Positions 6,540-64,000 of a stretch of 64,000 nt of DNA are shown here, piece by piece. The stretch's first letter is position 1. Each line of letters opens with the position of its first letter. The stretch lies in the IMG/VR virus record IMGVR_UViG_3300020165_000009; one strand, 5' to 3'. The notes under the pieces are model-generated. The model saw only the letters and a program-made list of their open reading frames with translations. It searched no databases and had not been told where the DNA came from. Position numbers and translations under genes: made by a program. Source of the stretch: a virus.

Positions 6540-7378
6540 ATATATCTGATCATAGGGATGCTCAATCTAATATAGATAAAGCTAGTAATATATACTCTAT
6601 GCTACGTGCTGTTGAGATTAACCCAACTGAGCTATGTAACCGGCGGTGCTCATTTTGCCCTAGACATGATTCTAAACTATATCCAAACACTAATAACCAT
6701 ATAAGTGTAGATACAGTTAAGAGTCTATGTAACAGCTTAAGAGATATTAATTTTAATAATAGAGTAGGGTTCGTTGGTTTTGGTGAGCCTTTATTACATG
6801 AAGATATATACGAATGTATCCGAGTCACTAGAGATATACTACCTGGTCTAAAGTGGCTAGAGATTAATACGAACGGCGATTTATTAGATAGAGAGACCTT
6901 AGAGAACCTTCATACAGCAGGTTGCTCTCACATTGCAGTAAGTATGTACGACGAGGATATAACTGATAGACTAACAGCGATGAAGGAGGATATACCTATT
7001 AATTTCATATTCAGACATCACTACGATAAGAGTAATAATTATAATCTGAATATAGTTAATAGGTCAGAATTACTAAAAGGCGATGCCACAGCTTATTTCG
7101 ATACACCGTGCCATATTCCATTTTATAAAGCCATGATTGATTGGAATGGCGATGTATTGTTATGTAATAATGATTGGAAGAGAAGTAAAATATATGGCAA
7201 TATAAACGAAGTAAGTTTTGATAAAATTTGGTTTGGTGATGAGTTGAATGCTCATAGAGATAAGCTGATGTGTAGTAGATCGCATTGCGATCCATGTAAG
7301 AACTGCTCTGTTGGTGGATTATTAAGAGGAGCTGAATCAATAGAGGTGTATACCGAATATCATGAAAGAGTGCATTAA
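6521..7378 (+). CDS. Radical SAM/SPASM(twitch) protein, BtrN-like
   Basis: CNRRCSFC, FGEPLL, NTNG, C-terminal C-x-x-PF...NGDVLLC...CxxC. Confidence 0.9.
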   Translation: MSTDGLNISDHRDAQSNIDKASNIYSMLRAVEINPTELCNRRCSFCPRHDSKLYPNTNNHISVDTVKSLCNSLRDINFNNRVGFVGFGEPLLHEDIYECIRVTRDILPGLKWLEINTNGDLLDRETLENLHTAGCSHIAVSMYDEDITDRLTAMKEDIPINFIFRHHYDKSNNYNLNIVNRSELLKGDATAYFDTPCHIPFYKAMIDWNGDVLLCNNDWKRSKIYGNINEVSFDKIWFGDELNAHRDKLMCSRSHCDPCKNCSVGGLLRGAESIEVYTEYHERVH

Positions 7379-8973: not shown

Positions 8974-9755
8974 GTAAAGATGTAATTACCTTTACATCAG
9001 ATAAAAACTACATACCGTTCGCAAAAATATTAGTCAATTCAATTCAAAAAAATTCTCCAAACGTAGAAATTGTTGGGAGATTTGTCAATTGCGAAGACGA
9101 AGATCTAGCTTGTTTTGATAGCATTAGTATTATTTCAGATAAAACAGAACTATCCACGGTACGTAATTTAAAAACAAAAGAGGGTCTGTACGCGGTAGAT
9201 AAAGAGGATCTTGTTCTTAAAAATAAAACTACGATTAAACCGCTGAGATTGTTCTATAGCGAGCTTATAGCTTATTGCTCAAATATAAAATTTGATACCT
9301 TGAAGAGGCTGCTTAAACTTCAGGTAGGGAGTGTAATTTATCTTGACGTTGACTCAATAGTAAGAGGCGAAGTATATAGACTATTTGCTGATTTAAGTAA
9401 ACATGACTTTTGCTTTTTCAAAGATAAGCCATATAGCGAGCAATTAGATACTAAAAGACTTATTGATGAGGATTTTTTGTATCACGGTGGATTAATAGGT
9501 GTCCATAATAATAAAGATACACGAGATATAATTAAATGGGCTTGTAGTGTTGTTAATGCAGAAATTTTTGACTGGGATGTGGATGAGAGAATAATTACTG
9601 AGTTCTTAGAGTTATCTAAAAGTATAAAGAATATAGATAAAAAATATAAAGACGAGGATTTAGAGAGTGGTTCTATAATTTGGTCTGGTTCCGGGAATAC
9701 AAAATTTACGCACGACAGATATATAGAAGAATGTAAAAAGTATGGTGATCTATAA
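8946..9755 (+). CDS. Glycosyltransferase, GT-A fold (GT8/GT77-like)
   Basis: N-terminal FTSDKNYI, YLDVDSIV DxD motif; paralogous to 16125..16889 (both end with WSG). Confidence 0.7.
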   Translation: MRELYRDLVGKDVITFTSDKNYIPFAKILVNSIQKNSPNVEIVGRFVNCEDEDLACFDSISIISDKTELSTVRNLKTKEGLYAVDKEDLVLKNKTTIKPLRLFYSELIAYCSNIKFDTLKRLLKLQVGSVIYLDVDSIVRGEVYRLFADLSKHDFCFFKDKPYSEQLDTKRLIDEDFLYHGGLIGVHNNKDTRDIIKWACSVVNAEIFDWDVDERIITEFLELSKSIKNIDKKYKDEDLESGSIIWSGSGNTKFTHDRYIEECKKYGDL

Positions 9756-16889: not shown

Positions 16890-17680
16890 ATAAAATAATA
16901 CACCAAACATGGAAAAATAAGAATATTCCTAACGATACTTTTAAGAGAAATTGGGTTGAGTCGTGGAAGAACTTAAACCCAACTTGGGAGTATAAATTAT
17001 GGACTGATGAAGATATGCATGACTTTATCTCAACCAAATATAGTTGGTTTCTACCTACATTTGAGGCATATCCGGAGCAAATACAGAGAGTTGATTCATT
17101 CAGATACTTTATCATTTATGAATATGGTGGCTTATATGCTGATCTTGATATTGAATGCTTTAAACCATTAGACACCCTTTTAACGGACAATTGTATAATA
17201 TTTCAGACATACCCGGAGCACCAAATGAAAGCAATAATAGATGCAGATAACCGAGAGCACCCACTTCGTAAACACTTCCCGTTACATAAACTTAAGAAGG
17301 GGTATTTTTTAACTAATAGTATTTTTTACAGTAATGGTGGTCATAAATTTTTTAAGAAGTGTATAGAGGGCTTAGAGAAGAGTTACGAGGAAAGTAAACG
17401 GTATAGATTTACAGAATTTGACTTTTTAAATAAGTCGTGTGTATGCAATACACACATAACGATGTCAGCCGGTAGTGGATTTTTAACAAGAATGTTTTTT
17501 AAATATGGTAGGGTTTTTGATGTAAAGGATTATAGTTACGGTTTCTTTGAACCATACAAACACACCAGGCGTAAAGAAATTCTATTAAATCAAGAGGCTT
17601 TTAATAAAGAAAATTTATACGGTATGCACTGGAATCTAGGTAGCTGGATAAATTTAGAGGACTCTGAATATAAGATATGA
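16886..17680 (+). CDS. Glycosyltransferase GT32 (OCH1/DXD-sugar-binding family)
   Basis: KIIHQTW, SWKNLNP-WEYKLWTD, DSFRY, YGGLYADLD. Confidence 0.9.
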   Translation: MNKIIHQTWKNKNIPNDTFKRNWVESWKNLNPTWEYKLWTDEDMHDFISTKYSWFLPTFEAYPEQIQRVDSFRYFIIYEYGGLYADLDIECFKPLDTLLTDNCIIFQTYPEHQMKAIIDADNREHPLRKHFPLHKLKKGYFLTNSIFYSNGGHKFFKKCIEGLEKSYEESKRYRFTEFDFLNKSCVCNTHITMSAGSGFLTRMFFKYGRVFDVKDYSYGFFEPYKHTRRKEILLNQEAFNKENLYGMHWNLGSWINLEDSEYKI

Positions 17681-46929: not shown

Positions 46930-46975
46930 ATAATTATTTACTGGATATATGCAGTTTAGCCGCTATAATATGTAT

Positions 46976-47764
46976 ATGACGAAGATGATATCCCACGAAA
47001 CGCCTCTATCTATGCTAGAGGAATCAATTACATATAATGATTATGACTACGCTCTAGTACATCTATTTGAAACTCATCCTGATTATCTAAAGTTTTTCAA
47101 ACGCTCTCTGGCCTGTGGTAGAGAGGTTCTACTAGATAATAGTATATTTGAATTAGGTAAATCATTCGATAGTGTTAAATTTGCCGAGTATGTGAAAGAG
47201 TTACGACCGACATACTACATTGTACCTGATGTATTAGAGGATGGTTACCAGACGATGGTAGATTTCTCTAATTTTACTAAAGAATACACCGACTTACCTG
47301 GTTTGAAAATAGGTGTCGTGCAGGGCCGTACATACGATGAGTTAGTTGAGTGTTATCAGTATATGTCAAGGCACGCTGACTATATCGCGATTAGTTTTGA
47401 TTATAGCTACTATATTGCGACTGGTAGGGGCGGTACAGAATTAGAGCGTTGGTGTACAGGTAGACAGAAGTTTATTCGTGATCTTATCAATGATGGTGTC
47501 TGGAATTGGCAGAAGCCTCATCACCTACTCGGTTGCTCATTGGCTTCAGAGTTTGGGCATTACGGTGATATTAAGAACATTAGAACGATCGATACCTCTA
47601 ATCCGGTTGTAGCTGGTATTAAGGAACTACGTTATAATGGTAATCTAGGGTTAGTAGATAAGCCTTCTATTAAGTTAGCTGATCTTATCGATCATAAAGT
47701 AACTGATACACAGAAAGAGGCTATCTACTATAACGTTATGCAATTTAAATCCATTATACAGTAA
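46976..47764 (+). CDS. TGT-fold deazaguanine transglycosylase-like protein (DpdA3-like)
   Basis: LLDNSIFELG, IVPDVL, GVVQG, HHLLG, IDTSNP; contiguous with a kinase and queF; start refined to ATG 6 nt after TATAAT. Confidence 0.65.
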   Translation: MTKMISHETPLSMLEESITYNDYDYALVHLFETHPDYLKFFKRSLACGREVLLDNSIFELGKSFDSVKFAEYVKELRPTYYIVPDVLEDGYQTMVDFSNFTKEYTDLPGLKIGVVQGRTYDELVECYQYMSRHADYIAISFDYSYYIATGRGGTELERWCTGRQKFIRDLINDGVWNWQKPHHLLGCSLASEFGHYGDIKNIRTIDTSNPVVAGIKELRYNGNLGLVDKPSIKLADLIDHKVTDTQKEAIYYNVMQFKSIIQ

Positions 47765-47765
47765 T

Positions 47766-48320
47766 ATGATAGTTAGTTTTACAGGAGCTCAAAGTACAGG
47801 TAAGTCTACTCTACTTAAAAGATGTAGAGATGATGAAAAGTTTAAATCGTATGAATTTGAACCTGAGGTAACTAGATGGGTTAAGAAGACATATGACCTC
47901 TCTATTAATGAGGATGGTGATGAGTTTACGCAGTTAGCTATTCTAAATCGACATATGCATAATTATCTTACATATAAAGATAAAGATGTTATTTTAGATA
48001 GATGTATATTGGATGGCTTGGTGTATACGAGGTACCTGCATTGCAGTGGTAAGGTAGGTGCGGATGTAATGGAGTATGCGTCGTATCTATATCGTAAGCT
48101 TGTTGATAAGGTGGATGTTATATTCTACACTGAACCTGACATCCCATTGGTTGACGACGGGGAGAGAAGCATCGACGTAGAGTTTAGAAACAATATTGTA
48201 GATATATTTGAGAGGGTTTTAGCTTCAACAGAGACCTCAACTAAGGTAGTTAGATTGAAAGGATCAGTTGAAAATCGTATGAAAGTAGTATATAATGAGA
48301 TAGAAAATTATGGCAAATAA
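47766..48320 (+). CDS. Deoxynucleotide monophosphate kinase-like P-loop protein
   Basis: FTGAQSTGKSTLL, LDRCILDGLVY, DDGERS. Confidence 0.75.
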   Translation: MIVSFTGAQSTGKSTLLKRCRDDEKFKSYEFEPEVTRWVKKTYDLSINEDGDEFTQLAILNRHMHNYLTYKDKDVILDRCILDGLVYTRYLHCSGKVGADVMEYASYLYRKLVDKVDVIFYTEPDIPLVDDGERSIDVEFRNNIVDIFERVLASTETSTKVVRLKGSVENRMKVVYNEIENYGK

Positions 48321-49245
48321 AGAACTAGATAATAGCAGAATTAGTAAGCACTTAGGACAGACATCGCAGTATAAGAGTCAATATGACCCTGAATTGCTTG
48401 TTAAGGAGCCTAGATCAAATAATAGAGGATACCTAGGTATTGTAGAGGGTGATTTACCCTTCGTCGGTTATGATACGTGGAATGCGTATGAGTGTTCCTT
48501 TCTTCTGAGTAACGGACGACCTGTAACCGGTGTTGTAAAGATTGTATATGATTGCAATAGCACATATATCGTCGAGAGTAAGAGTATTAAACTATACCTT
48601 AACTCCTTTAATATGACGCAGTTTGAAGGTAGTCAAGATGGAGCAGTAGCGCAGTTCGAATCTAAAGTTAGTGAAGATCTTAGTCAGCTACTCGAGACTG
48701 ATGTAGCTGTTAACTTCTTCGATCCGGCAGCCGTCGATCAGTACGATGTATCTGCTCATCAACAATGGTCGTTGGATAAGTATGACACGCTCGAAGATCA
48801 GGTATGTGATAAGGATATTGAATATACCGTATATAACGAGACGCCTGAGCTCCTAGAAGAGGGTAAGACGTCAGGTGATACAGACGTTGAAGTTAAGTAT
48901 CACTCAGCGTTGCTTAAGAGTAACTGCCGAGTAACGTCTCAACCTGACTGGGGTGATGTAATGATTCATATGAAGTCCAAGCATGCAGTTGATAAGGCAG
49001 CTCTATTGAAGTATATTATCTCCTTTAGAGACGAGTGTCACTTCCATGAAGAGATCTGCGAATGTATCTACCAGCGGCTGATGAAGGCATTTGAACCTAC
49101 TGAGTTAGGTGTTATGTGTCTCTATGCACGCAGAGGTGGTATTGATATTAACCCTGTTAGAGCGTCAGATAAGAACGTATTAGTTCACGTAGCTGATACC
49201 TTGATTGATCCGCAGAGAGTACATATTAAAACGTCTAAGCAGTAA
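48310..49245 (+). CDS. queF: NADPH-dependent 7-cyano-7-deazaguanine reductase (bimodular QueF)
   Basis: DTWNAYE, VESKSIKLYLNSF (QueF motif), LLKSNCRVTSQPDWG (catalytic Cys), FHEEICE, YARRGGIDINP. Confidence 0.93.
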   Translation: MANKELDNSRISKHLGQTSQYKSQYDPELLVKEPRSNNRGYLGIVEGDLPFVGYDTWNAYECSFLLSNGRPVTGVVKIVYDCNSTYIVESKSIKLYLNSFNMTQFEGSQDGAVAQFESKVSEDLSQLLETDVAVNFFDPAAVDQYDVSAHQQWSLDKYDTLEDQVCDKDIEYTVYNETPELLEEGKTSGDTDVEVKYHSALLKSNCRVTSQPDWGDVMIHMKSKHAVDKAALLKYIISFRDECHFHEEICECIYQRLMKAFEPTELGVMCLYARRGGIDINPVRASDKNVLVHVADTLIDPQRVHIKTSKQ

Positions 49246-58033: not shown

Positions 58034-58534
58034 CTATGCTCGGCGCGATGCAAGAGTTATCTTACGCTTATATTGTGGTAATGCCATTTGTTGCATCACT
58101 TGATTGAGAGCCTTTACCTTATGTACTAGTACTGAGCCTGCATCAGCGATCTTAGCATTGATAGCGAGAATAGGCGCCTTCGATAAGTCGGCAAGATCTC
58201 TACGTATATTATCTGTTAATGTAGTTAAATTAACTCTACCATACCCTGTTATAACTATCGATGGATTGGAAGGGGTGTTAATAGTATCTTCATGCTTAAG
58301 GTCGATGTAACCATAAACCTCATCTTCATTATCAGAAGCGAGATCAACAGCTGACATAATACCGGCTGCATTAGCCTTACCTCTACCGATTAACCCAGAG
58401 AATTGATTAGCGTTTGAATTCTCAACATCGTCACCGGGCCTGTACTTAGCATTATTAGGGTTACGTTGCTGCATTGTACCGATAGCGGACTGGTTAAGGT
58501 ATGATTCAACAATGTTTCTATCTTCTTCTCGCAT
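58034..58534 (-). CDS. Hypothetical late protein
   Basis: TATAAATA 5 nt before ATG; leader NIVESY. Confidence 0.55.
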   Translation of the reverse strand: MREEDRNIVESYLNQSAIGTMQQRNPNNAKYRPGDDVENSNANQFSGLIGRGKANAAGIMSAVDLASDNEDEVYGYIDLKHEDTINTPSNPSIVITGYGRVNLTTLTDNIRRDLADLSKAPILAINAKIADAGSVLVHKVKALNQVMQQMALPQYKRKITLASRRA

Positions 58535-58542
58535 AATAATAT

Positions 58543-58986
58543 TTATACCATCTCATCGAATTTAATCATTAGCCTCTCCCATTCATGACATTCGAGCTCA
58601 CATGGGTTCTTGAGGTAGTTATCATTCATAGCTGCAAGATCTTTAAGTGAGTAAGCAATCTTCTTCTCTGGTACCTTCTGTAGCACAGCCTGTACCCAAT
58701 GACGAAACTCATGAGCAATAGACGATAAGAAATACTCTCTCTTCTTCTGCTTAGTATCGCAAGCATAAGATATCAGACCCACCTCAATTTCATCTTCGCC
58801 CCAGAAGTATGAAGAGCTCTGAGAGTTAATACCCTTAATACCAACTTCATAAGACCAATATTTACGAGTAGGTACTAGACTATTAGCAAGGTAGTTAAGA
58901 AACAATTCCAGCTTACGTTTATCTACATCAAACAAGCGAAGCTTCTTATTAATAGCCTTATCACATTTAAACTTAATATCGATCAT
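58543..58986 (-). CDS. Putative zincin-like metalloprotein
   Basis: IAHEFRHWVQ (HExxH) ... Y--NPCELE; preceded by GGAAC module. Confidence 0.6.
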   Translation of the reverse strand: MIDIKFKCDKAINKKLRLFDVDKRKLELFLNYLANSLVPTRKYWSYEVGIKGINSQSSSYFWGEDEIEVGLISYACDTKQKKREYFLSSIAHEFRHWVQAVLQKVPEKKIAYSLKDLAAMNDNYLKNPCELECHEWERLMIKFDEMV

Positions 58987-59044
58987 ACCATTATTATATC
59001 GGTGTTCCCTTATGCGATTTCCGGACTAGGTACTTTGTCTTTCT

Positions 59045-59590
59045 CTATGTCCATAGTCTATGATGGTGCTTAATAATGGCTCTCATACAATCCTTATCCT
59101 TCTTGAGTTTTATAGCTTCAAGTCTACCTACCTCTTTATAACACGCTGTTTGCTCAGGCGAAACGGTTATCTCATAATGTCCATCAACGGTTTCACTCTT
59201 GCTGAATAGTGTCTCAAGTGGCTCCCGTGGTGGGTACGCAGCATCTATCTTCTCATCTATATCATTACGACCAGTCTTAATCCAGTTATAAGCCTTCATT
59301 AGCTCTTTGTCAACCTCCATCTGCTCATCAGCATAGGCCTGACTTACAAACTTAAGCTTAACTTCTTCAGCCCAATCATAACCAATGTCGTGTACCCAGT
59401 TAACTTTGCGTTCAACCTCTACATGATGCTCAAGGCACTTAAATAACATCCGCGGAATAAGTTCAACCTTATCACAATATGTATCAGGTATAACATTAGT
59501 CAACCATTCCTGCTTAGGGTAGAAGAAGCATTTGACCTTATATTGTAGGTCCCACCAGTAGTGGCTGTTGAATAGTAATTTTAGTTTCAT
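59045..59590 (-). CDS. Hypothetical protein; true start may be 59627 via an A7 slip
   Basis: 181-aa ORF ending LWT; see finding on the A7 run. Confidence 0.6.
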   Translation of the reverse strand: MKLKLLFNSHYWWDLQYKVKCFFYPKQEWLTNVIPDTYCDKVELIPRMLFKCLEHHVEVERKVNWVHDIGYDWAEEVKLKFVSQAYADEQMEVDKELMKAYNWIKTGRNDIDEKIDAAYPPREPLETLFSKSETVDGHYEITVSPEQTACYKEVGRLEAIKLKKDKDCMRAIIKHHHRLWT

Positions 59591-60201
59591 TATACTAGGA
59601 TAGCCAATCTTTTTTTGTTGTTTCCATACTCTTATTATATCGGAGTTCCTATAAGGGCATCTTACTTCTTCCAGAAAGCCCCCTGCCGCAGGCCGCCCAC
59701 AGACGCGCCGCAGGCGCGCAAAAAAATCTCTCCGCGGCTCGAGCCACCCGCCGCTCCCATATGCACCATGCCCACAGTATATAGAGCTCTGATATCTGAT
59801 AGGAGTATCCCGGAGACGTCCTCATACTATAGAGGCGGGAAGCCCGCTAACTTAGAAGATAGGAAAGGTACTTAGAAGTGTTATATTCTCTTATACCCCT
59901 TTGGGGTGGATAGAAGGGTACTGTATATAGACGCTGTCCCTACACGGACAACCTAAGGAGACAGGGGCCATTCATATGTCTAATACAGTCGATACTCTCG
60001 GAAGGCTCGGAGCAAGCGGAGGCGAGAGAGAACGGGGGCTATATAAGAGGCAGGCGAGCGCGCACAAAAATTTTTTATGGCATGGGACTATACCATTCCT
60101 GATTCCTCTGCTCTATATATATACCTTTCCAGTGGCGTGATCTCTCAGAGCGGGTCTCTCTCTGACAAGCTTTGTATTCTGAGAACGCGGTGGTGGTATA
60201 G

Positions 60202-60232
60202 AAAAAGGGCCTAGCTCTCTCGAACTAGACCC
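60202..60232 (-). terminator. Intrinsic terminator closing the early gene array
   Basis: Minus strand GGGTCTAGTTC-GAGA-GAGCTAGGCCC-TTTTT. Confidence 0.75.
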
Positions 60233-60339
60233 ATTACAACAAATTAAAGCAAGAGGTAGACTGTAAGTTATATTATTAGTTGTAGTCTGTTTTAAGGAGC
60301 CTACCTCTTGCTATCATACAGCGTCGCAGCTGATTGATA

Positions 60340-60687
60340 TTAAACTGGTGACCATTCGATTACATCCGACTCTTCTGTCTTCCAATCGATAGTATTGGCG
60401 ATGTAATTGATCACGGTTGACTTGATGCCACCTCCGGGAGTGCGTAAGGAGCGTCCATCTGATGTCCAGGGCTTGATGTCGATAGTGTGATTAGGGAATC
60501 GATCTTGGAGTGATTGCTTGAGCTCATCTGCTAGTTCTGGATTGTCGTGAGCTAGCTTGGCTCCAAAGAGCTTGATGCGATTGTGACCTACTCTCTTATC
60601 GTTGTAGATGTTTCCTTCGAAATGGATCCCGAGTGATTCGAGAGCTGTTTTTACGTGACGTTGGTTTAGTATACTGTTCGTGTTCAT
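60340..60687 (-). CDS. Hypothetical early protein (cassette)
   Basis: ATG lies within a GGAAC module. Confidence 0.65.
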   Translation of the reverse strand: MNTNSILNQRHVKTALESLGIHFEGNIYNDKRVGHNRIKLFGAKLAHDNPELADELKQSLQDRFPNHTIDIKPWTSDGRSLRTPGGGIKSTVINYIANTIDWKTEESDVIEWSPV

Positions 60688-60708
60688 AATAATATTATAT
60701 CGGAGTTC

Positions 60709-60948
60709 CTATGCATCTAGCATTGCAGACTTCTTATGTCCTTCTTCTTCATTAGTGTTGTATCCTTTAGTGTAAGCTGTGATCTGCTCGGCGGACATAT
60801 CAACCATGTCTACACGAGGAGAGTTATATGAGCCTGAGCCATACATATAGCAGTGCGGGTCAAAGGGGCGATCGTAATAGCTATCTGCTGCTCCTCGATC
60901 ATATGGTGAGCCATGGGACTTGTCGTATTGTGGGGTTGTATCTGTCAT
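60709..60948 (-). CDS. Hypothetical early protein (cassette)
   Basis: HGSPYDRGAADSYY motif; TAG stop is part of the next module. Confidence 0.7.
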   Translation of the reverse strand: MTDTTPQYDKSHGSPYDRGAADSYYDRPFDPHCYMYGSGSYNSPRVDMVDMSAEQITAYTKGYNTNEEEGHKKSAMLDA

Positions 60949-60969
60949 GTCTATATTATACTACTGTTC

Positions 60970-61191
60970 CTAGACTACTCCATCTGGTACCCATTCAAAC
61001 ATACCTGGAATATCTTCTATAGGTTTGAGGGTGTGTTGTTCTACTTCGATATTATCGATGTTATCTTCTCCATCTAGTAGAGACCAGAACTTATCATATG
61101 CTCTAGCGAATCCATCAGCATCGATCCAGAGCTGCTTATCTTGTTCATCCTGACTGTATGCGAAATGATAACGATTGTTTAGCTTTTCCAT
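60970..61191 (-). CDS. Hypothetical early protein (cassette)
   Basis: Bounded by modules at both ends. Confidence 0.65.
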   Translation of the reverse strand: MEKLNNRYHFAYSQDEQDKQLWIDADGFARAYDKFWSLLDGEDNIDNIEVEQHTLKPIEDIPGMFEWVPDGVV

Positions 61192-61212
61192 ACTCTTATT
61201 ATATCGGAGTTC

Positions 61213-61470
61213 CTAATACTTTAAGTCCATGATAGGACAGAACCAAGCTTTCAATTGCTCTACCTCATAGTGTGCCCTACCGAAGTCTCCCTCCAGTTGC
61301 CAGTACTCTATCGTGTTGATGCTGAGGTTAAGCTTATCCATCAGGCGCTGGCACTCCTTACTACCCTCTGTAGCTGCTGCTTGTAGATCGCTTCCGGCCT
61401 TACTATATAGCCAATTGTAGCATCTCTGCATATAGAGTAGGTCTTTCGGTACATCTTCTGGGAGAGGCAT
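61213..61470 (-). CDS. Hypothetical early protein
   Basis: Start refined to MPLPED (TAATG overlap); stop within module. Confidence 0.6.
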   Translation of the reverse strand: MPLPEDVPKDLLYMQRCYNWLYSKAGSDLQAAATEGSKECQRLMDKLNLSINTIEYWQLEGDFGRAHYEVEQLKAWFCPIMDLKY

Positions 61471-61637
61471 TACTTGATTAGGTGGATGGTTAGTGTGATA
61501 GCAGCTGACCATACTACTACTGATGCTGCAAAGATAACGAATAGATTTCTTACTGAGTGGAGGTCTTGCTTGATCCTCTCTAGCTCTATCTTCTTGTCTA
61601 GGTCGTCTAGGACTTCTTGTATGGGATGTGCCTTCAT
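61470..61637 (-). CDS. 55-aa membrane protein; not in the ORF track
   Basis: MKAHPIQEVLDDLDKKIELERIKQDLHSVRNLFVIFAASVVVWSAAITLTIHLIK; ATGA and TAATG overlaps with neighbours. Confidence 0.65.
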   Translation of the reverse strand: MKAHPIQEVLDDLDKKIELERIKQDLHSVRNLFVIFAASVVVWSAAITLTIHLIK

Positions 61638-61849
61638 GATCCGTACTTCTCGTGCTCTACTGCAGCTGCATCATGAGTTTCTTTCTTCAGGTCATCTAGG
61701 GCCTGGTCCAACAACTCCTGGATTGCGCATTCTAGGTCCCAATTCTTTAGGTCGAGGCCCTTCTCCTTCATCTTCTTCATTAGGGCGAAGCCACTCAATG
61801 AAGAGCTCAAGCGCCCATATGCATATGGGTAGTTTATCCTTTTGTCCAT
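61634..61849 (-). CDS. Hypothetical early protein (cassette)
   Basis: ATG within module. Confidence 0.65.
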   Translation of the reverse strand: MDKRINYPYAYGRLSSSLSGFALMKKMKEKGLDLKNWDLECAIQELLDQALDDLKKETHDAAAVEHEKYGS

Positions 61850-61869
61850 AACTTATTATATCAGTGTTC

Positions 61870-62187
61870 CTAGTGCACTAGAGCATCACTCTTAATGTCT
61901 AGCTTAATCTCTCTTGGCTCTCTATAGCAGGGCTCGATATCGACAATAGTACATCTAGTGAACGATCCAGGTACATCATACACATCATGGAAGGCCTTGC
62001 GAACAGACTCTTCATCATACATAAACACATGCTCGTCGACCTGTAAGACATAGTCCATGCCTCCTTTGTTCTTGTAACGACCATAGGCTTCATCGCCTAT
62101 ATGGTCTTCACAACCATACCACTCCTTGTATTGTGTCTTGATTAGGACCTTCATCGTGTGGATTATTTTATAGTTCTTATTCATCAT
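61870..62187 (-). CDS. Hypothetical early protein (cassette)
   Basis: TQYKEWYG...YKNKGG motif; bounded by modules. Confidence 0.65.
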   Translation of the reverse strand: MMNKNYKIIHTMKVLIKTQYKEWYGCEDHIGDEAYGRYKNKGGMDYVLQVDEHVFMYDEESVRKAFHDVYDVPGSFTRCTIVDIEPCYREPREIKLDIKSDALVH

Positions 62188-62258
62188 ACTATTATTATAT
62201 CGGAGTTCCTAATATAGTAGGCAGTTTAGGCACTTACCTAGGTGTTATGATGAAATCT

Positions 62259-62594
62259 TTACCAGCCTAAGGCATGCCTTGGACCTTCTGGGAGATAGCC
62301 TAGCTGTGTACCTTCTTCGAGATATACCACATCCTCGAGCACTCCTTCGTCTTCTAAATTCTGCTCAGCCAATGCCTTCATATCTTTATGTGACATAGGC
62401 TCTTGATTATTTTCGTCAATCGATTGTCGGATCTCTTCAATCTCATTGTCGATCATTGTATGCTTATCCCATGGGACTACTTCTGCAATGGAGTACTCAA
62501 ATGGATAGCTAGGTTGACTCGCAAATCGAACTTCAGCGTTAGGTGACTGCTCAGCGATTTCTTCTAGTGCTTGGATTAGGTCTTGTATATTCAT
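62259..62594 (-). CDS. Hypothetical early protein (cassette)
   Basis: DLIQALE...EVRFASQPSYPFEYSI...QLGYLP; module upstream. Confidence 0.7.
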   Translation of the reverse strand: MNIQDLIQALEEIAEQSPNAEVRFASQPSYPFEYSIAEVVPWDKHTMIDNEIEEIRQSIDENNQEPMSHKDMKALAEQNLEDEGVLEDVVYLEEGTQLGYLPEGPRHALGW

Positions 62595-62620
62595 CGTGAC
62601 TAATTATATTGGTGTTCCTG

Positions 62621-62911
62621 TTAGTGAATCTCTGCCACTAGATCTAATCCAGCCTTCTCAATAATATCCATTAACTCGTCATTTAACATATCTAACTTAG
62701 CGAATAATCTAGAGTGGTTATTATTATCTACATCAAACTTAGTTCCTTCAAATCCCTTCTCATCACTCATCCATGAATCGATTCTCTTAATCTTCTGGAC
62801 AAGTTCCTCTCCGAGATATAATAAAGCAGTTTCCTTATCATCTCTCTCCATATCATTGAAGTATCTTGTTGCGCGAATCTTGCTTAGTTTGTTATATGTT
62901 ATATTCATCAT
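62621..62911 (-). CDS. Hypothetical early protein (cassette)
   Basis: Bounded by modules. Confidence 0.65.
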   Translation of the reverse strand: MMNITYNKLSKIRATRYFNDMERDDKETALLYLGEELVQKIKRIDSWMSDEKGFEGTKFDVDNNNHSRLFAKLDMLNDELMDIIEKAGLDLVAEIH

Positions 62912-62932
62912 ACTATTATTATATTAGAGTTC

Positions 62933-63142
62933 CTACTTCAAATGATTTACTGTCATCTTAATACCAATATCAATACCAGTTCGAAGTGCCTCTTTAAGAG
63001 CGCCTTCAAGCCGCCAAACACTCACATCATGAAAATCAAGACTATCTGACTTTTGTTCCTTAAGTGTTTTAATATGCATATGCTTCTTGGCAATTGCTGC
63101 TACCAACTCGTCCTGCTCTTTTCCTAAACAATCATTCATCAT
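62933..63142 (-). CDS. Hypothetical early protein (DUF6900-like)
   Basis: IAKKH--IKTL-EQKSDSLDFHDVSVW-L--AL. Confidence 0.6.
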   Translation of the reverse strand: MMNDCLGKEQDELVAAIAKKHMHIKTLKEQKSDSLDFHDVSVWRLEGALKEALRTGIDIGIKMTVNHLK

Positions 63143-63154
63143 ACTATTATTATA

Positions 63155-63298
63155 TTAGAGTTCCTCCTTAATAATCTCACCACCCTTTAGAATATAAAAC
63201 CAACAATCATCTTCACAATCATCAATCTCATATCCATAATCAACTCTCAACAACTCACCTCTATACTTCTTACCAACTTCTAATATATCTTTCATCAT
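63155..63298 (-). CDS. 47-aa acidic early protein; not in the ORF track
   Basis: MMKDILEVGKKYRGELLRVDYGYEIDDCEDDCWFYILKGGEIIKEEL; starts and stops inside modules. Confidence 0.7.
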   Translation of the reverse strand: MMKDILEVGKKYRGELLRVDYGYEIDDCEDDCWFYILKGGEIIKEEL

Positions 63299-63310
63299 AC
63301 TATTATTATA

Positions 63311-63475
63311 TTAGAGTTCCTTAATAAATTCCTCAACTACCTCTTTAAAGACACTTCCATCATCAAATTTGAACTCATCAGCTCCATTCTCGCCCCAACC
63401 TTCTTCAATAAAGTCTAGTACTTTTAAACCAACTTCATCTCCATATTTTTCACAAACACTTTTATAATTCATCAT
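63311..63475 (-). CDS. 54-aa acidic early protein; not in the ORF track
   Basis: MMNYKSVCEKYGDEVGLKVLDFIEEGWGENGADEFKFDDGSVFKEVVEEFIKEL; starts and stops inside modules. Confidence 0.7.
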   Translation of the reverse strand: MMNYKSVCEKYGDEVGLKVLDFIEEGWGENGADEFKFDDGSVFKEVVEEFIKEL

Positions 63476-63496
63476 ACTATTATTATATTGGAGTTC

Positions 63497-63766
63497 CTAA
63501 AATTGAATATACAAACCCTCTTCCAACTTATTAACTTCTTCTAATACCTTCTCTACTTTAATAGTCCAATCATCCTTACTATCATAATCTCCATCATCCT
63601 TCATATCTTTTATAAAGTCTGTAATCTGTTCCTTCCAAAAACTTACCTTAACAACTCGACCTATTAAGTCTAATCCTGACCACATATCATATAAAGAACT
63701 ACAAACATCAAAATCAACATTTGTATCGCCAAACTCAACTACCTTATAACCTTTTACTTTCATCAT
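63497..63766 (-). CDS. Acidic early protein (cassette)
   Basis: Bounded by modules. Confidence 0.7.
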   Translation of the reverse strand: MMKVKGYKVVEFGDTNVDFDVCSSLYDMWSGLDLIGRVVKVSFWKEQITDFIKDMKDDGDYDSKDDWTIKVEKVLEEVNKLEEGLYIQF

Positions 63767-63787
63767 ACTATTATTATATTGGAGTTC

Positions 63788-64000
63788 CTAAAACTCTACT
63801 AACACCTCATCATCAAACTTCTCAAGACTATTAAGCATTATTACACATTTGTCTTTCCACCAACAATATTCACTATTCTCTTCAACCCACTCAATAGTAC
63901 TTTCTAGAATAATCTTCAAAAACTCAACATCTAAAAACCTTCCTTCAATATCTTTCCCACTTCCATTCTCATAAATCTCTTCACATAATTTATAATCCAA
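63788..64000 (-). CDS. Acidic early protein, 5'-truncated by window edge
   Basis: Open to the window end; stop inside module. Confidence 0.65.
   Translation of the reverse strand: MDYKLCEEIYENGSGKDIEGRFLDVEFLKIILESTIEWVEENSEYCWWKDKCVIMLNSLEKFDDEVLVEF

Follow-up and report, generated by a model that had tools for sequence, protein, structure and literature searches.

A mobile set of small acidic genes of early type, carried by a distant, marine T4-like bacteriophage and its relatives, is kept nearly free of cytosine (C) by selection on the nucleotide itself. The set lies where the window, the 64,000-nucleotide (nt) stretch of DNA analysed here, reaches the contig end of phage record IMGVR_UViG_3300020165_000009, and it forms part of an array of short open reading frames (ORFs) separated by a 25-nt repeat. 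It spans five or more protein families unrelated to one another, and this promoter-like repeat stands ahead of each gene. Selection acts at synonymous sites, through the choice of amino acids and, in some lineages, in the intergenic repeat as well. The genes are encoded on the minus (-) strand, so that each C of the coding strand is a G on the + strand.

Positions 63181-64000 of the + strand hold 280 A, 220 C, 31 G and 289 T, G making up 3.8% of the 820 bases. A preliminary description of this DNA had counted about 31 G by hand and the recount gave exactly that number; the placing of 8 of these 31 within the promoter repeats (copies 63296-63320, 63473-63497 and 63764-63788) and the presence of only 3 C on the coding strand of ORF 63155-63298 (3 G on the + strand) were also reproduced. 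Elsewhere in the array the G content is 28.5% (60401-60600) or 10.5% (62601-62800). The GC skew of the last kilobase (kb) of the window is -0.685, whereas elsewhere it ranges from -0.22 to +0.25. Strand-specific sliding windows of 150 nt, run over all 64 kb, mark 63083-64000 as the sole stretch with at most 6% G. Three short stretches with 4.7-6% C occur in + strand genes of the AT-rich glycosyltransferase region (7113-7291, 9505-9691 and 17286-17445) and are far weaker and shorter than this island.

The proposal that acidic, AT-rich proteins might by themselves produce such a depletion does not hold. When the four protein sequences were fixed and their synonymous codons redrawn in 20,000 simulations per model, 63.8 C (standard deviation 6.2) were expected from the codon usage of 27 long genes of the window and 99.8 (standard deviation 6.9) from that of seven ordinary cassettes of the same array. 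The genes contain 27 (z -6.0 and z -10.6, respectively), and neither model gave so low a count in any of its 20,000 runs. Nor is acidity the explanation, because an equally acidic array neighbour at 62259-62594, with an isoelectric point (pI) of 4.09, has 19.8% C. The avoidance is strong enough to reshape amino-acid use, as the preliminary description had held: Ala, Pro, His, Gln and Thr together account for 7 of 260 residues in the four C-poor proteins (2.7%) compared with 20.6% in the reference (binomial 1e-17). These data support the avoidance of C in the message or, equivalently, of G in the template.

The codons of the C-poor genes bear this out. TTC and ATC are each used at 1%, TAC at 2% and TGC at 0%, and the genes encode Ser by AGT (84%), Arg by AGR (93%) and Leu by TTR (69%). 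C occupies 2.7% of third positions versus 18.7% in ordinary cassettes, the loss being almost one-for-one a gain of T (+15.5 points), which reaches 33% overall and 45% at third positions. Amino acids with C in every codon fall to 0.02 of normal for Pro and His, to about 0.2 for Gln and Ala, and to 0.67 for Thr. In comparisons of homologues, A<->G and C<->T differences stand at 76:19 in C-poor genes and at 61:45 in ordinary cassettes. C sites are touched by 22% of the differences, though they make up 3.5% of all sites, and C therefore keeps arising and is removed.

A process without selection on C would have to be mutational, such as C-to-U deamination of the non-template strand in very highly transcribed genes or the hit of a deaminase, or would involve import from a skewed source. 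The replacement of third-position C mostly by T agrees with such a process, as does the gain in residues, which is strongest for Val, Cys, Trp and Phe and is thus what C-to-T changes would produce; Glu, Asp and Lys are enriched as well, however. The switches from TCN to AGT for Ser and from CGN to AGR for Arg are beyond single C-to-T steps. The borders of the island are sharp and fall at cassette junctions within one terminator-free transcription unit. The trait tracks its families through shuffling and down to 25% identity, outlasting sequence saturation, and the frames have stayed open although all three stop codons are C-free. These features argue for selection, and make mutation bias or foreign origin a highly improbable account of the island.

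Clustering of 181 cassettes gave 48 families, of which five unrelated ones lie at 2-7% C: the A/B superfamily (84-89 amino acids, aa) and families C (54 aa), D (47-48 aa), E (55-57 aa) and F (27 aa). One further family has 8.9% C and the rest have 11.7% to 25%. All C-poor proteins are acidic (pI 4.0-4.4). None has a significant family in PHROGs or Pfam, family E giving only a weak hint of HTH_23 (E 0.03). A, A' and B form one superfamily, alignable over the full length at 25-43% identity, and all are C-poor. A profile search with A/B of 1.8 billion protein representatives returned 19 clusters, all of them poor in the C-requiring amino acids, most with 0-6% and the four most distant with 11-15%, against the reference of 20.6%. 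Modelling of the 89-aa gene product confidently predicts a fold of three short strands and three helices (pLDDT 94.9, pTM 0.81). No significant match to this fold was found in PDB or BFVD (best Foldseek E 0.49 and 0.23, respectively), nor a convincing relative with VIA-align (best Z 4.8). Its sole match in the ESM Atlas, a viral cluster without a name (TM 0.83), probably represents the same family.

In some distant members of the superfamily the purge is stricter and reaches 0-1 C per gene. A Tara Oceans contig (L019) has 3 C in 677 nt and a marine contig (L020) has 4 C in 1032 nt, including a C-free run of 506 nt. The repeat of the latter has also lost its C, reading GGAAATTTGATATAAT in place of GGAACTC..ATATAAT. 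In L021, where the member is more distant still, it has 7.6% C and its neighbours have 21-24%. The chance of finding no third-position C across 84 codons is 3e-8. The purge of C has lasted through divergence to 25% identity, and its depth points to a cost attached to each single C rather than to a mild compositional preference.

The genomic position of these genes had been taken as the upstream end of the array, and the genes themselves as the first to be expressed. Both views are artefacts of a contig break. The contig simply stops within the island, nothing in the sequence establishes the timing of expression, and longer relatives flank the island with cassettes of ordinary C content. These longer relatives come from marine and estuarine metagenomes. 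In L011, L012 and L013 the C-poor genes fill about 1 kb, beginning about 1.2 kb into an array of at least 20 cassettes, with ordinary cassettes (13-23% C) on both sides; counting L018 as well, they are found 1-8 kb inside the array. In L018, whose array exceeds 30 cassettes, the C-poor genes form two islands separated by 4.6 kb; the borders are sharp, with C content passing from 13.5% to 0.7% and back to 17.6%. L014 has a single C-poor gene. The repeat occurs in 20-34 copies in L011, L013 and L018.

Cassette order differs even between near-identical phages, being B-A-C-D in the window and D-B-A-C-E in L001. It is F-B-A-E-C in L011, and in L018 A' lies apart from B-A. The C-poor trait thus travels with particular cassettes and is independent of position in the array. 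Assemblies from many samples stop within the island (the window at 64000, L007 at its end, L001-L006, and contigs of 0.9-1.5 kb in ENA), and these breaks, together with the changes of order, suggest structural variation at the 25-nt repeats within the population. Some relatives carry CAG in place of the repeat's TAG, and two cassettes are then called as one fusion, as in P0012 (139 aa) and P0013 (110 aa), with the repeat translated as QELSYNNSMM. A megablast search with 60000-64000 and a tblastn search with family B found no match among 50,697 phage records, and a scan of viral contigs with the 89-aa family A protein found no relative.

The T4-like affiliation of the phage follows from Pfam matches to Gp23 (2e-89), Portal_T4 (4e-98) and T4-gp15 (6e-20) and from a class I ribonucleotide reductase, its gp23 capsid protein being only about 35% identical to cyanophage capsids. 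From 64000 to 60232 the - strand forms one co-directional array of small ORFs, each preceded by the repeat GGAACTCnnATATAATAnnAGTATG, which is present in 12 copies in the window where 0.07 would be expected by chance. The upstream stop codon lies in or just before the repeat and the next ATG follows 6-7 nt after TATAAT; no Shine-Dalgarno sequence precedes the ORFs of the array. No hairpin resembling an intrinsic terminator was found on the - strand between 64000 and 60232, the only one of the array being that at 60232-60207, and an Rfam search of 58500-64000 gave no match. The parts of the island and its surroundings are collected in Table 1.

Table 1. Parts of the C-poor island and of the adjoining array, in order of transcription
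Feature	Position	Strand	Remarks
Family B gene, 3' 70 codons, cut by contig end	63788..64000	-	84 aa in relatives L001/L003; 5 C in 210 nt (2.4%)
Repeat copy GGAACTCCAATATAATAATAGTATG	63764..63788	-	Upstream stop, promoter-like TATAAT, ATG of next gene 6-7 nt on
Family A gene, 89 aa, pI 4.4	63497..63766	-	11 C in 267 nt (4.1%)
Repeat copy	63473..63497	-	
Family C gene, 54 aa, pI 4.2	63311..63475	-	8 C in 162 nt (4.9%); ends E-L-stop within next repeat
Repeat copy	63296..63320	-	
Family D gene, 47 aa, pI 4.4	63155..63298	-	3 C in 141 nt (2.1%), two of them in CTC of next repeat
Repeat copy	63140..63164	-	Downstream border of strongly C-poor island
Two intermediate-C cassettes	62621..63142	-	69 aa, 12.1% C; 96 aa, 11.1% C
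Rest of array, ordinary C	60207..62594	-	17-26% C; same repeat; ends at hairpin 60232-60207

The intermediate C content of the two cassettes at 62621-63142 belongs to their families and not to their position, since their homologues elsewhere have 10.5-18% C; an effect of position on C content is thereby ruled out. The cassette family of 60340-60687, with homologues at L007:913-1194 and L018:4010-4291, varies from 10.6% to 26.4% C between lineages. Its C-rich member has Thr or Ala opposite Val in the C-poor ones, and the family could serve to trace the loss or regain of C. Just downstream of the array terminator lies a GC-rich, gene-free stretch of 550 nt (59651-60200) without a match in Rfam at E 0.1.

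As an arrangement of genes, the array has a precedent in the PeSL (promoter-early stem-loop) cassettes known from the T4-type phages RB49/phi1 and from further T4-like myoviruses (PMC2839356, PMC4122927). Both consist of small ORFs of unknown function in a hyperplastic region of a T4-like genome; in both, a conserved promoter-bearing repeat brackets each ORF, and close relatives differ through the gain, loss and reordering of cassettes. The repeat of the present array differs in that it is a 25-nt GGAAC-N5-TATAAT element which joins stop to start and has neither stem-loop nor terminator. The exclusion of a nucleotide, moreover, is not mentioned in the PeSL abstracts.

The window also carries genes of a putative pathway for deazaguanine DNA modification. 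FolE, QueD and QueF are clear, and a QueE-like protein is indicated by no more than a match to radical-SAM Fer4_12; the 64 kb contain neither QueC nor a DpdN-like formyltransferase. A DpdA3-type gene (46949-47764) without a Pfam hit shares 50.8% identity, across 94% of its length, with the protein annotated as DNA guanine transglycosylase in Flavobacterium phage immuto, and 45% with proteins of Campylobacter group II phages. The order DpdA3, nucleotide kinase and QueF at 46949-49245 is that of immuto. The best relatives of FolE and DpdA3 all come from phages of Flavobacteriia, which suggests that the host belongs to the Bacteroidota / Flavobacteriia group. Every G is replaced by fdPreQ1 in immuto and by dDG in phiST, and replacement is also full in CP220, a relative of CP21 (PMC10516641). 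That paper makes no mention of strand-specific avoidance of G.

Sliding-window scans of five records of other phages with a deazaguanine pathway revealed a C-free gene in one, Flavobacterium phage immuto_2-6A. Its gp143 (NC_055915.1, 68330-68686) encodes an acidic protein of 118 aa and has 5 C among its 357 nt. The zone free of C apparently extends from the putative transcription start, just past a -7-like promoter box, to a terminator hairpin, so that C is gone from the putative 5' leader and kept in the promoter spacer immediately upstream. The gene belongs to an array (67600-74200, L037) of about 20 small genes, each placed after a conserved GTTG...TATATTTAGGTATCAATAATTAAAAC box and a GC hairpin with a T run; these are promoter-plus-terminator cassettes, like composite PeSLs. 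A 60-aa gene of immuto at 72224-72406 has 5.5% C. The scans found no C-free gene in Cellulophaga phage phiST, Chryseobacterium phage MA9V-3 or Campylobacter phage CP21, all three of which are without QueF and DpdN. CP21 was rejected as a case because its only C-poor stretches are short (230-300 nt, at 3-4%), its genome has 13.6% C and G, and it has no comparable ORF. The fifth record, a T4-like relative (G001), has DpdA3, DpdN and QueF contiguous and no C-poor stretch in the 87 kb scanned, which are 41% of its genome. The co-occurrence of C-free genes with deazaguanine pathways, which the preliminary description had proposed to test, is thus seen with the preQ1/fdPreQ1 branch in two lineages and is absent in three phages, in a small and confounded sample.

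Since the purge reaches synonymous sites, amino acids and the promoter repeat, and lasts, something in the infected cell makes each C, or each template G, costly. The step from selection against C to any particular agent is one that we infer. We tentatively favour, at somewhat short of an even chance, a hazard exerted through the C of nascent messages, by way of limiting or poisoned CTP (cytidine triphosphate) or of a C-directed attack on RNA. CTP is normally the scarcest nucleoside triphosphate (NTP), and ddhCTP is a chain terminator made by viperin. Were CTP limiting in the infected cell, or poisoned by a chain terminator such as ddhCTP, each C in the nascent message would be a point of failure; the same would apply if C were the site of an attack on new RNA. 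A message made without CTP and presenting no C would be completed and translated when ordinary messages fail. The products would be proteins required by the phage in any state of the cell, for example takeover or counter-defence factors.

Selection at the level of the nucleotide is indicated by the purged synonymous C and by the C-requiring amino acids, which stand at 0.02-0.67 of normal. The 3 C in 677 nt of L019 and 4 C in 1032 nt of L020 argue for a cost per letter, and immuto gp143, purged from putative leader to terminator, adds an independent case. Several points weigh against a hazard in the message. No agent acting on C or on CTP was found. The downstream genes of ordinary C content in the same terminator-free array would face the same hazard, and at least five unrelated proteins would all have to need the privilege. 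Sequence by itself cannot separate C in RNA from G in the template, and the timing of expression and the transcription start sites are inferred only.

An alternative that deserves weight, albeit an unlikely one, locates the cost in the template. A host enzyme excising or marking a preQ1-type 7-deazaguanine (probably fdPreQ1), or slow reading of the base, would stop RNA polymerase only at lesions of the template strand; G-free templates would stay readable and would not be cut to double-strand breaks, and the small acidic products would disarm the attacker. This possibility is supported by the FolE, QueD, QueE-like, QueF and DpdA3-type genes of the window, and by immuto, which has fdPreQ1 for all its G and carries a C-free gene. 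The three scanned phages that are without QueF and DpdN have none, the trait occurring only in phages with the QueF arm (DpdN being present in immuto), in a very small sample. The C-free repeat of L020 is likewise free of G on its template side. Host attack on the modified base is possible in that glycosylases are known which excise modified phage bases and leave abasic sites, as Brig3 does with 5-hydroxymethylcytosine (5hmC) (PMC13160076). The comparison of two phages with three is confounded, however, by shared pathway ancestry and host group, and G001 has DpdA3, DpdN and QueF with no C-poor stretch in the part scanned. We know of no enzyme that attacks deazaguanine DNA, which counts against this alternative.

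The preliminary description had proposed a related idea, that the modified guanine itself impedes host RNA polymerase until these products act. The que and DpdA3 genes it invoked are indeed present, but an intrinsic block is weakened on three counts. First, neighbouring cassettes share the promoter and have ordinary template G, and the remaining genes of the phage are likewise read from modified templates rich in G. Secondly, 7-substituted deazaguanines inhibited bacterial RNA polymerases without shortening transcripts, so that inhibition occurs at initiation and not during elongation (PMC4838386), a result that also tells against slow reading of the base. Thirdly, phiST, CP21 and MA9V-3 have no such genes.

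It is improbable, though conceivable, that the genes were selected for structure-free messages. Without C there are no G-C pairs, and messages that lack a Shine-Dalgarno sequence, and are probably leaderless, would load ribosomes and be translated fastest when unfolded, an advantage in hosts whose translation begins on unstructured RNA, such as Bacteroidota. In keeping with this, the predicted folding energy is -13.9 kcal/mol per 100 nt versus -22.5 in ordinary cassettes, the ATG stands 6-7 nt past TATAAT with no Shine-Dalgarno sequence, and the best relatives of FolE and DpdA3 all lie in Flavobacteriia phages; weak folding may help messages of this kind. The last few C of a gene and its spacer add little unfolding, however, yet lineages reach 0-1 C per gene. 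Initiation should depend on the start region only, and G, the loss of which would have the same effect, is in no case depleted (25-34%).

Escape from Rho is very unlikely as the cause, although it has a documented parallel. Rho loads on naked RNA that is C-rich and G-poor, and C-free, G-rich messages would evade premature stops and allow transcription to reach the rest of the array, intrinsic terminators being absent from 64000 to 60232. Where bacteria have runaway transcription, a purine and G-over-C bias of the sense strand has been attributed to the avoidance of Rho, which senses an excess of C over stretches of at least 150 nt and is favoured by T-richness (Dierksheide et al. 2026, PMC13323073). 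As here, selection for G over C on the coding strand reaches the choice of codons and amino acids; the bias described there (PMC13323073) is genome-wide and mild, in contrast to the present few genes at 0-5% C beside ordinary ones. Ordinary cassettes already have more G than C (23.7% versus 17.7%), and the C-poor genes have exchanged C mainly for T (45% of third positions), the base that favours Rho. Neither the purge to 0-1 C per gene nor single purged genes amid ordinary ones (L018, immuto gp143) are explained. Avoidance of Rho thus fits the direction of the bias and not its depth.

It is scarcely credible that the island is an R-loop-prone stretch, with G-rich RNA on a C-rich template, which primes replication as in the transcript-primed origins oriF and oriG of T4, which use R-loops: an extreme GC skew does lie just downstream of promoters in a T4-like phage, but the stretch is 68% A+T, consists of conserved genes for well-folded proteins, and among relatives changes its place, is divided in two or is reduced to a single gene; the purging of individual C would, besides, be superfluous in an origin.

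Escape from an ACA-specific mRNA interferase such as MazF, another earlier suggestion, is ruled out, as there is no selective loss of ACA: among the 180 remaining C of 28 C-poor genes, ACT (53) and ACA (36) are the commonest contexts. The TC context stands at 24% versus 28%, the loss of CC is trivial and no strong dinucleotide rule is apparent. A motif-specific RNase and YC-specific reading are therefore unsupported as well. ACA-less mRNAs survive MazF in single-protein production, and there too a message escapes by lacking the target; those mRNAs are engineered, whereas the present genes are natural, avoid the whole letter in every context and retain ACA. The G-less cassette of Sawadogo and Roeder, reportedly a transcription unit that can be completed in vitro with three NTPs, is a laboratory construct without G in its RNA, in contrast to these natural, translated genes without C.

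Literature searches found no published description of cytosine-free or C-less phage genes, or of a link between ddhCTP and early genes. Natural protein genes that exclude one nucleotide, and thereby encode folded proteins of about 15 kinds of amino acid, are likewise absent from the literature searched. It is attractive, if speculative and on present evidence unlikely, to consider such three-letter genes as a general viral answer to immunity or physiology directed at one nucleotide. C-free messages would be the sole ones completed when CTP is poisoned or withheld, through viperin-type ddhCTP or pyrimidine starvation, and their small acidic products, including the new fold of 84/89 aa, would be inhibitors which reopen transcription of the remaining genome.

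Once identified, the agent that makes each C, or each template G, costly would represent an unrecognised nucleotide-directed host defence or bottleneck, or else a cost of hypermodified DNA, and the orphan proteins would be marked as first-line factors of takeover or counter-defence. The cause is directly testable, since cultured immuto_2-6A has one such gene as a single promoter-to-terminator unit. The C-poor proteins, meanwhile, provide natural examples of folding with a reduced amino-acid alphabet.

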